NCBI GenBank assembly: GCA_037431425.1
Contig: GCA_037431425.1_4129.3
Length of the DNA: 35,820 nt
From: a phage
Direction: 5' to 3' (one strand)
Below the pieces are notes generated by a model, which made no database searches, was not told the DNA's origin, and worked only from the letters and a program-made list of their open reading frames with translations. The translations under genes were made by a program, and so were the position numbers. Of this stretch, positions 10,768-32,754 are shown one piece after another. Position 1 is the stretch's first letter. Each line of letters opens with the position of its first letter.

Positions 10768-11132
10768 ATAGTAAATTGGAGAAATTAATCGAAGAATTAC
10801 GCCAGATGCCGCCGATTGAACAAGTAGGTAATTATAAACGGTATCGTATTATTGCTCGTGCACTTGATAAAAAAGGTAGAGTACTGGCAACTCGCACAAA
10901 TTCTTATACACAGACTCACCCTAAGCAGAAAAACTTTGCAGTTAAAGCTGGAAGAAATGATGCAATATGGTTACATGCTGAAATAAGCTGTTTACTCGCA
11001 GCAAGGGCTGATGTTCACACATTATTAATTGCACGGGTTAGTAAAGATGGAATTCCCGTTTCTGCAAAACCATGTGAAATTTGCTCTTTAGCAATACAAG
11101 AATACGGAGTAGTTGAAGTAATACATACATAG
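10764..11132 (+). CDS. CDA-fold zinc-dependent deaminase-like protein
   Basis: HAE (LHAEISCLL) and PCxxC (KPCEICS) zinc-ligand motifs; ATGA coupling. Confidence 0.55.
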   Translation: MNSKLEKLIEELRQMPPIEQVGNYKRYRIIARALDKKGRVLATRTNSYTQTHPKQKNFAVKAGRNDAIWLHAEISCLLAARADVHTLLIARVSKDGIPVSAKPCEICSLAIQEYGVVEVIHT

Positions 11133-11145
11133 GTAGAATATTTTC

Positions 11146-12222
11146 ATGGAAGAAATAAAAAAAGAATTAAATCAATTTAATGAATACGTATATAATTTGT
11201 ATTTTAATAAAAATATTATTTTTACTTGGATGAAACCTGAAGATATAAAGTATATAAAAACATCATCATCAAGTAAATCTCCATTTTACTTTGAAAAATT
11301 AATACTCAATAAATCATTTTCAAATTATCATTTTGAATTTCTTGGTTTTAATATAAAAAAATCAGATGATTGGATAGGAAAGCTTACAAATATAGTAATT
11401 AAGTTGAATGATATAATATATATACGTAACATAAAATCTTTTTTGGAGATGCCTGTGACTCTCAAGCGTGTCCCATATGTGATTCATAATTCTAATAATA
11501 TTAGTTACTATTTAAACAAATACAATAAAAATTTAAAATATATAAATTGTATGTATGATAAAATCAATGAAAAAACTTATTTAGATTTACAATGTAAAAT
11601 ATGTGGTTATGAATATAAATCATGTTTAAACAATATTAAACATAGAAGTACAGATTGTCCTGGTTGTATGAATAATGTTGTATTATCTGAAGATGATATG
11701 TTATATAGAATAACATTGAAATTATATACACAACCACATATAAAATTATTAAATTTCAACTATAATAACGGTGGTAATAAGAATGCAATAGGTACATATT
11801 ATTGTGAAATACACAATTATACATGGGATTCTATGTATTTTGGGACAATTGCAAAAGATCAAAGTTGTAAACTTTGTATGCAAGGTCAATCTAAAGGTGA
11901 AAAATATATCACTGAAATATTGGATAATTTAAAGGTAAATTATATAAGAGAATATAAATTTGATAAATGTTTTAATCAAAGAAAATTACCTTTTGATTTT
12001 TATATTCCAGATTTCAATTTATGTATAGAATATGATGGAAGACAACACTTTGAATCTGTGGATTTTTATGGTGGAAACGATGCTTTTTTTATAAGAAAAA
12101 AGAATGATGAAATAAAAAATTCATTCTGTGAAAATAATAATATTACATTATTAAGATTTAATGATCTCAATTTTTCTCGTATTGAATCAACATTGAATAG
12201 AATACTAAAAAGTGTTAAATAA
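11146..12222 (+). CDS. Putative free-standing homing-type endonuclease (Cys-pair zinc-finger region + DUF559/Vsr-like nuclease C-terminus)
   Basis: Much more AT-rich than neighbours; several CxxC pairs; C-terminal ...FDFYIPDFNLCIEYDGRQHFE...ITLLRF resembling the DUF559 restriction-endonuclease-like signature. Confidence 0.5.
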   Translation: MEEIKKELNQFNEYVYNLYFNKNIIFTWMKPEDIKYIKTSSSSKSPFYFEKLILNKSFSNYHFEFLGFNIKKSDDWIGKLTNIVIKLNDIIYIRNIKSFLEMPVTLKRVPYVIHNSNNISYYLNKYNKNLKYINCMYDKINEKTYLDLQCKICGYEYKSCLNNIKHRSTDCPGCMNNVVLSEDDMLYRITLKLYTQPHIKLLNFNYNNGGNKNAIGTYYCEIHNYTWDSMYFGTIAKDQSCKLCMQGQSKGEKYITEILDNLKVNYIREYKFDKCFNQRKLPFDFYIPDFNLCIEYDGRQHFESVDFYGGNDAFFIRKKNDEIKNSFCENNNITLLRFNDLNFSRIESTLNRILKSVK

Positions 12223-12444
12223 ATGAAAATTGAACGCTACCAAAACCATACAGTTGTGACTGAAGATGATATATTTTATTTTTATATTTTTTCACCTAAT
12301 CACTGTTTGCAAATAACAACATTTAATGATGGTAAATTTAAAGATATCAATTTTCCAGTATCAGAATTAGCTAAATATTCCAGTACTGAACACTTTAGTA
12401 ATCTAGTATTTGTGTACTGTATTCCAAACTCAAATAATAAGTAG
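12223..12444 (+). CDS. Hypothetical small protein (in the AT-rich insert)
   Basis: 73-aa ORF directly abutting the endonuclease gene; same extreme AT-richness. Confidence 0.35.
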   Translation: MKIERYQNHTVVTEDDIFYFYIFSPNHCLQITTFNDGKFKDINFPVSELAKYSSTEHFSNLVFVYCIPNSNNK

Positions 12445-28617: not shown

Positions 28618-29016
28618 ATGCTTAAAGAATTAGATTTTTCAAACTTAGAAATTATCAGTGCTGTTAAAAACATCTCCGACATGGGAGATGAGAAATCAGT
28701 GCTTGTTACTATTACTTTTGTAAAAGAAGAAGATAGTTATAGTCATTTGACTGGTATTGAAGAACTAATTCATAAAACCAATCTTGAAAATAATGGTAAA
28801 CTCATCAAACTTCAGGCATCCTATATCCAAAAAACATCAAATTTTATAGACATAAATAATATAGTCAAGGTGGTATATAATCATCCTGACCACAAATATA
28901 GGAATACATCAAGAAATGAAAATATTGCGAAAGATACTAACATCATAGAAGATGTTGACTTTATCAATACTATTTTTGATCGTTGCTCTATTGATTTGAA
29001 AAAAGTATACATGTAA
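28618..29016 (+). CDS. Hypothetical protein
   Basis: ORF 2 nt after the upstream stop. Confidence 0.5.
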   Translation: MLKELDFSNLEIISAVKNISDMGDEKSVLVTITFVKEEDSYSHLTGIEELIHKTNLENNGKLIKLQASYIQKTSNFIDINNIVKVVYNHPDHKYRNTSRNENIAKDTNIIEDVDFINTIFDRCSIDLKKVYM

Positions 29017-29045
29017 TGGGACAATAATTGAACCTGTGATATAAT
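29017..29045 (+). promoter_or_regulatory. Promoter: -35-like TGGGACA plus extended -10 TGaTATAAT
   Basis: TGGGACAATA at 29017-29026, TGATATAAT at 29037-29045; same motif and spacing as at 7215-7244. Confidence 0.5.
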
Positions 29046-29326
29046 GTATATTGTAAAATGACAACGGACATTGTAAAAAATGGACACTGAAAACCTAATT
29101 CACTTGAAAATGTAAAGGATAGATGAGCTTTACCGTTGTAGCGAACAGCAGAAGAAACCCGTTAGAGTACTGGCATTCAAACAAACACGATGTAAGACCA
29201 CGAATCACGGCGACACGGCTGTATAAAGAACTCCGATAAGCATACAGAGAGTTCCTAGATAGATGTATAAGGTTCGCACCTTACCAGATTTGCTAAGGGA
29301 GTTTAAGAATGGCGAACGCAATTTTT

Positions 29327-29355
29327 ACAAGAAAGTTGCGTCCAAAATTTGAGAA
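29327..29355. repeat. Direct repeat copy 1 (29 nt)
   Basis: ACAAGAAAGTTGCGTCCAAAATTTGAGAA; 26/29 identical to copy 2, 153 bp away. Confidence 0.8.
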
Positions 29356-29479
29356 CAAGTACTACTTTGATCGAATAGAGTTAGTACTGAGTGCTGTTGA
29401 TGAAAAGACCAGCGACCGTTGCATATGACTGCGATAGAGAGAAACCGAGCAACCCGCTTTCGCTCTCTAAATCTTTGGT

Positions 29480-29508
29480 ACGAGAAAGATCCGTCCAAAA
29501 TTTGAGAA
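29480..29508. repeat. Direct repeat copy 2 (29 nt)
   Basis: ACGAGAAAGATCCGTCCAAAATTTGAGAA. Confidence 0.8.
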
Positions 29509-29546
29509 ATTCGCAATTCGATAATATCCGATGCCATCAGCGTCAA

Positions 29547-29573
29547 GAAGAGACTTAATTGTCTCTTTTTTAT
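29547..29573 (+). terminator. Rho-independent terminator closing the non-coding island
   Basis: AAGAGAC-ttaatt-GTCTCTT followed by TTTTTT. Confidence 0.65.
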
Positions 29574-29712
29574 TACTTTCATTCCCCTGTGGGGGGATGA
29601 AATAGTCCTCAACAAATCCCGTCAAGTTATTAAAATACATTATCATTATTCAGAAGTAACAAGTTTACGAAGTAAACGAAGTGACTTCTTGGGTTGCGAG
29701 AGAACGAAGTGA

Positions 29713-30141
29713 ATGAGTAACACAACGAAAATATATAATAAATCTGAATTAACACAATTGTTATTCAAAGAATATTTTGAGTTTCAGATAAAAGACGAAC
29801 ATCAATTACCACAACAATACTTGAAAAGAATTAAAGATACGTCAGTAATTACTAAAGAAACTAATTTTTATAATAGTATTTTGGATTTCGTTAAATCAGT
29901 TCATACGACAAGACCTATTGTAGTTTTGTTTTTTGATAAATCTATCCCTTTAGTAGTTCCCGAAAATGTATTTTTTATCTCAGAAACTGATTTAAATAAC
30001 CAAAGTACTGTAAGTAGATTAAGAAATTGCTTACTTGTAGTATGTGATTCCTATTTGTATAATAACAGAATACTATGGGATAGAAGTAAACGTAATGCAG
30101 TTTCGGAAATGAACCCTGAACTTACATTTATTATTAACTAA
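29713..30141 (+). CDS. Hypothetical protein
   Basis: 142-aa ORF; first gene after the non-coding island. Confidence 0.5.
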   Translation: MSNTTKIYNKSELTQLLFKEYFEFQIKDEHQLPQQYLKRIKDTSVITKETNFYNSILDFVKSVHTTRPIVVLFFDKSIPLVVPENVFFISETDLNNQSTVSRLRNCLLVVCDSYLYNNRILWDRSKRNAVSEMNPELTFIIN

Positions 30142-32274: not shown

Positions 32275-32754
32275 ATGTATAACCTTACAATTATCCGCGA
32301 ACCAAATGAATATGATGGTGATACGACATATGGTGAAGTTTTGGTATTTCAAAGTACTGAACAAAGTGAAATTGAACGTGAATTAAAAGATTATTTACGT
32401 GAACATTTATATCTATACCGTACTGATGCAAATTGTCATTATGGTGATATAATGTTTATTGTAACACATAATGGTGTAGTAATTGAATATGTGAATATGA
32501 CAAATGCTATGGATTTTCTTAATTACACTGATACTTCTACACCATTGGATAATTATTTCAGTACTGTTTTTGATGAATTACGTAAGAACGTTTCTAGAAA
32601 TGATAGATTCTGCACTAATGTTGAATTATTAGAATCAAATACAAGAAAGAATCTTTCTAAAAAGTATGATGAGGAACGTAGAAAAAATATGGAAATTAAA
32701 CATTTACATGAGTTAATGAAGAAATATCCCAATGAGGTCAAATATGGCTCTTAG
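32275..32754 (+). CDS. Hypothetical protein
   Basis: ORF with AAGGAG SD. Confidence 0.55.
   Translation: MYNLTIIREPNEYDGDTTYGEVLVFQSTEQSEIERELKDYLREHLYLYRTDANCHYGDIMFIVTHNGVVIEYVNMTNAMDFLNYTDTSTPLDNYFSTVFDELRKNVSRNDRFCTNVELLESNTRKNLSKKYDEERRKNMEIKHLHELMKKYPNEVKYGS

Follow-up and report, generated by a model that had tools for sequence, protein, structure and literature searches.

The locus studied here raises the question of why a non-coding island of a jumbo phage carries two almost identical sequences in direct orientation, and what these sequences do. Escherichia phage ph0011 (OP557969.1, Asteriusvirus, 348 kb) matches the analysed stretch of 35,820 nucleotides (the window) with an identity of 98-99%. 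Between two plus-strand ORFs the window contains an island of about 700 bp (29017-29712) that has no annotated genes and a G+C content above that of its surroundings.

The repeat pair and its transcription unit

A repeat search of positions 28900-29800 returned a single family of direct repeats, TACAAGAAAGTTGCGTCCAAAATTTGAGAA at 29326-29355 and TACGAGAAAGATCCGTCCAAAATTTGAGAA at 29479-29508, which are identical at 27 of 30 positions. The first-pass annotation had omitted the leading T and described a 29-nt pair with 26 of 29 identities and a perfect 17-nt core. Both statements hold, the two copies sharing CGTCCAAAATTTGAGAA exactly. Its flanked segment of 153 bp needs correction, as 153 is the start-to-start distance and the stretch between the copies measures about 124 nt. 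The core is present at only these two sites in the 35.8-kb window, even with three mismatches permitted. At the same tolerance, shuffled sequence gave a mean of 0.17 matches, and one of 100 shuffles reached two. The earlier rejection of a CRISPR array on account of the spacing was correct. Such arrays consist of several repeats of 24-48 nt with unique spacers of similar length, whereas here two copies lie about 124 nt apart with a conserved RNA core between them, and most homologues harbor one copy. No CRISPR-DR family of Rfam matched the repeats themselves. The sole CRISPR-DR match in the island was DR37, on a C4/G6 hairpin downstream of the repeats, with 16.6-18.2 bits against a gathering threshold of 40 (E 2.4-8.3).

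That the repeat is due to chance, or forms part of a protein-coding gene, can hardly be credited at all. The minus-strand ORF of 96 amino acids noted earlier does exist (29325..29615, TTG start), and short CDSs are annotated at this place in some GenBank records. However, phages 121Q and CMSTMSU have orthologues in which a frameshift or an interruption disrupts the ORF, which bears out the doubt already expressed about its coding capacity, and the annotated CDSs are inconsistent between records. Furthermore, the substitutions follow the pattern of a base-paired RNA, and the low number of core matches in shuffled sequence speaks against a chance repeat.

The island appears to be transcribed as a unit of its own, from an extended -10 sigma-70 promoter to an intrinsic terminator. 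The following elements were located:

29018..29045, plus strand: sigma-70-type promoter with a -35-like GGGACA, a 16-nt spacer ending in TG (extended -10) and TATAAT at 29040-29045
29052..29577, plus strand: body of the structured non-coding RNA (ncRNA), about 520 nt, paralogue P1, its ends predicted from the promoter and the terminator
29545..29577, plus strand: intrinsic terminator with a 10-bp stem, a 6-nt loop and a U tract
29577..29626, plus strand: downstream block, consisting of the hairpin UUUCAUUCCCC-UGU-GGGGGGAUGAAA followed by CAACAAAUCCCGUCAAG

The promoter scores 10 of 12 and carries the TG. Among the aligned homologues both its TGnTATAAT box and, 17 nt upstream, a T(G)GnAC element are preserved, and transcription is predicted to start at about 29052. 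ORFs are not conserved among the homologues. The island thus combines transcription signals of its own with the lack of a conserved ORF, as is typical of an ncRNA gene. About half of the family members have the terminator, and the others lack it. Since these others nevertheless possess the downstream block, the 3' end of the RNA is only putative. The block comprises the hairpin and a following CAACAAAUCYCGUCAG, is rich in C4/G6 and is kept by each of the 36 aligned members, also where a terminator is lacking. Changes in its stem (helix 13) are one-sided only, and a promoter-like match (TCAACA-16-TAAAAT, 29609-29636) overlaps it. The block may belong to the RNA, serve the next genes as a promoter or act as some other DNA-level signal.

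Two further observations concern other parts of the window. At 32444-32464, a stretch of 21 nt matches the RNA gene's promoter region (29036-29056) with 95% identity and probably represents a further early promoter of this type. A segment of 1.1 kb with a low G+C content of 21-26% (11084-12225) is missing from ph0011. It contains an ORF of 358 amino acids (11146-12222) whose C-terminus resembles a PD-(D/E)XK / DUF559-type endonuclease motif (FDFYIP...IEYDGRQHF), and is probably the insertion of a free-standing homing endonuclease.

A family of pseudoknotted RNAs

Homologues of the island were found by blastn at four places in the ph0011 genome, at 61.2, 116.2 (P1, the window copy), 198.6 and 314.8 kb, with a mutual identity of 75-77%. 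Each paralogue has its own TGnTATAAT promoter and lies in an annotation gap or beneath a doubtful short CDS, and the four share no conserved neighbouring gene. Three to five matching places each were found in 72 GenBank records of Rak2-like jumbo phages, whose hosts are Escherichia, Salmonella, Klebsiella, Cronobacter, Erwinia, Serratia, Yersinia, Pectobacterium and Xanthomonas. In total, 76 distinct full-length members were gathered from GenBank and from pattern scans of IMG/VR and metagenomes, filtered with nhmmer. The filter removed the matches of the loose pattern GACCGTTG-N-CAACCCGC in IMG/VR that were due to chance, which were the majority. A scan of GTDB genomes with GCAGAWGAAACCCGTYAG gave 78 matches, against about 69 expected by chance according to our own estimate, and none of them was a family member by nhmmer.

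Two additions to the common architecture were noted. In paralogue P4 of ph0011 (L003, 11180-11260), and likewise in L056, L031, L045 and L233, a hairpin resembling a terminator, U tract included, directly follows the promoter, 5' of the RNA body. These members belong to one orthology group, and the hairpin might protect the 5' end or act as an attenuator. An optional element of about 45 nt (GAGUACUGGCAUUC...GACCACGAAUC; 29170-29206 in the window) lies between the strands of helix H5 described below. It occurs in only about one third of the members, scattered across the paralogue groups.

The secondary structure was predicted with RNAalifold on an alignment of 36 homologues. Of the 64 pairs predicted, 43 showed compensatory double changes. 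The main elements in the window are:

29061..29139, plus strand: helix H1, 29061-29068 ACAACGGA with 29132-29139 ACCGUUGU, enclosing hairpins H2 and H3
29145..29254, plus strand: helices H4 (29145-29149/29218-29222), H5 (29159-29162/29207-29210) and H6 (29228-29233/29249-29254)
29358..29388, plus strand: long hairpin H7, whose apical loop AUCGAAU (29370-29376) forms pseudoknot PK1
29370-29376 with 29516-29522, plus strand: PK1, AUCGAAU of the H7 loop with AUUCGAU of a distal strand
29418-29422 with 29449-29453, plus strand: pseudoknot PK2, GUUGC with GCAAC, the 3' strand lying in the H11 loop
29430..29515, plus strand: helix H10, 29430-29434 UGCGA with 29511-29515 UCGCA, enclosing H11 and the site-2 arm
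29437-29441 with 29457-29461, plus strand: helix H11, within H10
29530..29544, plus strand: conserved 3' hairpin GAUGC-CAUCA-GCGUC

Seventy pairs in 13 helices were paired in 96.3% of the alignment cells, compared to 75.9% in column shuffles (none of 500 reached the observed values) and 34-45% when partner columns were slid by one to three positions. Changes on both sides of a pair were present in 51 of the 70 pairs, and the covariation score was 0.548 versus 0.19 for shuffled and 0.07-0.12 for slid columns. Compensatory substitutions thus exceed the controls, as expected for a structured ncRNA. Folded by itself, the window sequence has a minimum free energy (MFE) of -123.5 kcal/mol (z-score -2.78). 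H1 covaries at seven of its eight pairs; in P1 both of its strands are rewritten with respect to the family consensus CUGAUUGA/UCAAUCAG, with complementarity retained. H10 and H11 are each 100% paired and contain four covarying pairs apiece. The conserved 3' hairpin has GACGA/UCGUC in most members and GAUGC/GCGUC in the window. Its compensatory differences were judged by eye, as the length of the loop shifts the alignment.

The pseudoknots were found by an all-against-all column scan of the 76 members and then confirmed on the 36-member alignment. PK1, with 7 bp, is 99.1% paired with changes on both sides in six of the seven pairs. PK2 is 100% paired and contains one covarying pair, which occurs as four pair types (UA 18, CG 16, AU 1, GC 1). 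Slid controls, with both pseudoknots counted together, were 30-50% paired. PK1 is therefore well supported, and PK2, with its single covarying pair, is the weaker of the two. Comparative analysis of these sequences shows that the island encodes a heavily folded, pseudoknotted ncRNA with at least 13 helices.

This RNA does not correspond to any described family that we could find. The window gave no match at gathering thresholds to any family of Rfam 15, group I/II introns, RNase P, 6S and HEARO included, and a search at E<=10 with three members (P1, P2 and one from IMG/VR) gave only short matches at chance level. ARAGORN found neither tRNA nor tmRNA. A blastn search of 5,426 E. coli genomes recovered two island copies, treated below, and no similarity to rnpB, ssrA, ssrS or rRNA. 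Some conserved blocks were reminiscent of RNase P; this candidate was dropped because the motifs are in the wrong order and no model matches. The ph0011 genome study used Infernal with Rfam and reported tRNAs only (PMC9692438). The searchable full-text literature, including the CBB and fEgEco12 genome papers, contained no description of such an RNA. As the family could be found neither in Rfam 15 nor in that literature, we regard it as new. In public annotations its loci are blank or masked by short "hypothetical protein" CDSs, such as 198818-199108 in ph0011, 121Q gp516, A4_511, Kaldavass CDS0296-0298 and 7t3_0445-0447. These CDSs vary between records in strand and extent and are almost certainly spurious.

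A module on two peripheral arms

Within this fold the repeats are two instances of a conserved module with the consensus AAAUUUG-UACAAUAUAGAUCCGUCC-AAAAUUUG. Based on 43 distinct instances, the core reads GUACAAUAUAGAUCCGUCC and contains several near-invariant positions between A/U-rich flanks. In the window, module and arms are arranged as follows:

29301..29356, plus strand: site-1 peripheral arm with the basal stem GUU 29301-29303 with AAC 29354-29356, bearing copy 1
29326..29355, plus strand: module copy 1, UACAAGAAAGUUGCGUCCAAAAUUUGAGAA
29464..29507, plus strand: site-2 peripheral arm with the basal stem H12, UCU 29464-29466 with AGA 29505-29507, bearing copy 2
29479..29508, plus strand: module copy 2, UACGAGAAAGAUCCGUCCAAAAUUUGAGAA

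Site 1 is the arm between an invariant GCUAAGGGAG and hairpin H7, just 5' of the latter, and its basal stem covaries at four of four positions among the 76 members. Site 2 is the arm inside helix H10, and H12 covaries at all three pairs. The 3' end of either repeat (GAGAA) furnishes its arm with the 3' strand of the basal stem. Of the 76 members, about 41 have the module at site 1 only, about 26 at site 2 only, eight at both sites and one at neither, so that 67 members possess a single module. Where it is missing from site 1, the arm is a short capped hairpin. Where it is missing from site 2, a short hairpin is found there, with a GNRA cap in 9 of 21 site-1-only members. The sole member apparently without a module at either site is L311, a divergent sequence of 498 nt on metagenome contig OGVK01004308.1. 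A module profile run over the 348-kb ph0011 genome gave five matches, all of them within the four RNA genes.

Conservation in relatives, which the first-pass annotation had made part of the test of its observation, was found at two levels. The module occurs in all 36 aligned members, and both copies are present in every Asteriusvirus P1 orthologue examined. In 121Q, CMSTMSU, Turkey5 and A4, which are 80-97% identical across the island, both copies are kept and carry independent substitutions. As all of these orthologues retain the pair, the double module of the window copy is no accident. A double module also arose independently in at least four lineages besides P1, among them the copy in an E. 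coli island. Both P1 copies carry a lineage-specific GAAAG instead of UAUAG. This shared variant suggests that the P1 pair originated by intragenic duplication or gene conversion in an ancestor of Asteriusvirus and was stably retained thereafter. Among the options considered at the outset, a duplicated RNA module is thus supported, and recognition sites fit the evidence as far as a presumed role can; the remaining options found no support.

The interior of the module behaves differently from the helices around it. Two fixed-register hairpins placed in the module were each 66-68% paired, no better than shuffles, which indicates that the module is conserved as sequence. Read off the sequence, the MFE structure of P1 has each copy paired to the flank on its own 5' side, and the three mismatches between the copies are met by different partners. 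Length variants from metagenomes hint at an inner hairpin and a single-stranded CCGUCCAAA linker. A kissing interaction of the module's UACAAU with an H7 loop AUUGUA was considered and rejected, as the loop covaries with 29516-29522 (PK1) and not with the module. Two candidate contacts between module and core, CGUCC:GGAUG and CAAU:GUUG, have invariant partners and thus lie beyond covariation.

The modules, whose flanks (AAAAUUUG) read as A/U-rich and possibly single-stranded, might also be RNA processing sites, where an RNase would cut the P1 transcript in these flanks or in the hairpin to yield three pieces. We consider this decidedly improbable, because covarying long-range pairs (H10 and PK1) join segments on either side of each module, so that the RNA would function as one folded molecule. 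Processing would in itself be compatible with the explanation that we favour below. The probability that a small mobile insertion produced the repeats, either as a target-site duplication or with the module as a MITE-like hairpin with A/T-rich inverted ends, is very low. Inverted A/T-rich flanks do border the module (AAATTTTG ... CAAAATTT), and its position differs between members. However, the same two arms are always occupied, and the 348-kb genome has no further instance of the module. In IMG/VR it is restricted to the RNA family, the other 18 pattern matches representing an unrelated coding gene outside it. The segment between the repeats is moreover the conserved RNA core with H7, H8 and both pseudoknot strands, which is found in all members, also in those with a single module. 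This contradicts the target-site duplication that had been among the options listed at first.

A further explanation is that the island is a cis-acting replication origin, at which the transcript primes replication or forms an R-loop like ColE1 RNA II or the transcripts of T4 oriF/oriG, with the repeats as initiator iterons. ColE1 RNA II and the T4 origin transcripts are primer RNAs, and the present RNA resembles them in being structured, about 0.5 kb long, transcribed from a host-polymerase promoter, equipped with a G/C-rich block near its end and present in several copies per large genome. Four copies dispersed across 348 kb, a sigma-70-driven transcript followed by a conserved C4/G6-rich block, and the RNase H, primase and helicase encoded by the phage would all suit an origin. 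A chromosomal island that holds just the RNA element would also make sense if it hijacked phage replication. Nevertheless, an origin is improbable. Iterons are at least three phased and clustered direct repeats, whereas each element has one or two modules, most members a single one, and no iteron array is present. A primer of the ColE1 RNA II type would run on into the origin, persist as a hybrid and be processed by RNase H, but in roughly half of the members a terminator lies between the RNA and the downstream block. GC skew, which tracks gene orientation and carries no information here, has no inflection at the copies. Unlike the primer RNAs, many members end at an intrinsic terminator, and covariation extends over the whole 500 nt including two pseudoknots, which points to a globular RNA fold.

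Possible function and relatives of the RNA

The explanation that we favour, and consider probable, builds on the repeats being two copies of a family-specific module on peripheral arms of an ncRNA of about 520 nt, and takes this module for a recognition or docking element. It could be a binding site for a protein or another RNA, or make a tertiary contact with the core. Such a role is proposed because the module is conserved in sequence without covariation and can be mounted on either arm. The interchangeable position would be explained if the two arms were near each other in space. Topology alone makes this probable, since PK1 joins the tip of H7, beside site 1, to the strand that leaves H10, beside site 2. 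The P1 RNA would thereby display two copies of one recognition element. In all likelihood the RNA works in trans, as a scaffold of RNA or RNP that the host RNA polymerase would express early, because it is an independent transcription unit, has no conserved neighbour gene and is also found on its own in a bacterial island.

In its general features the RNA is similar to GOLLD (RF01998) and ROOL (RF03087), which are likewise at least 500 nt long, intricately folded and encoded by phages as separate transcription units, without an adjacent partner gene or a known biochemical function. However, no covariance-model match to either was obtained at E<=10. GOLLD and ROOL are found mostly in Firmicutes and lake metagenomes, whereas the present family belongs to jumbo myoviruses of Enterobacterales, has about four diverged paralogues per genome and carries a module that is able to sit on either arm. 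Large ribozymes offer a second comparison, as they swap peripheral elements. This is seen in type A and type B RNase P, and in group I introns with their peripheral domains and swapped tetraloop-receptor pairs. The present RNA shares with them a conserved core and an accessory element that is located on different helices depending on the lineage, with a short capped hairpin where the element is absent. It differs in that its module is conserved in sequence, catalysis is not known for it, and Rfam intron and RNase P models do not match. Homology to the four non-coding transcripts of 0.2-0.6 kb defined by RNA-seq in PA5oct, a distantly Rak2-related jumbo phage (ncRNA001-004; PMC7318152), was also considered. 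These transcripts contain no signature motif of the family and gave no nhmmer match to it at E<=10, and were rejected as expressed homologues.

A full member of the family with promoter, both modules, PK1 and terminator was observed in an E. coli island (L221, 8888-9492; NZ_AP027515.1, 3478976-3479465; also NZ_CM130020.1). It is present in 2 of 5,426 complete E. coli genomes, where it lies within a CDS-free gap of 1.4 kb in an integrative island adjoining ffs. The closest phage copy, with 80.6% identity, is a paralogue of Serratia phage BF and the Erwinia pEa_SNUABM phages. Apart from a weak DUF4326 match, island and phage have nothing else in common. The island encodes a truncated integrase, IS3, mSLOG-DUF4326, DUF488 and DuOB genes and resolvase/recombinases.

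More speculatively, and with a rather low probability in our view, the four paralogues might be subunits of an RNA or RNP machine, be it a multimer of the ROOL/GOLLD type, a new ribozyme or an RNP. The module would then be a connector recruiting a partner common to all of them, which could be a phage protein, one of the other subunits or a factor of the host, for instance from its translation or defence systems, and the E. coli copy would be a decoy or hijacker in the service of the host.

Bacterial and phage RNAs of such size and complexity are rare, and those that have been solved are ribozymes, guide-RNA scaffolds or self-assembling cages. Since each copy possesses a strong early-type promoter, the RNA is probably abundant and important during infection. 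The module of this putative scaffold offers an experimental handle, as it is short and sequence-conserved, can be mutated or moved between two natural sites, and can be used as a bait for the partner. The E. coli copy opens a route to asking whether hosts turn the RNA against phages. Its size, two pseudoknots, paralogy and relocatable module make this RNA a strong candidate for experimental study.
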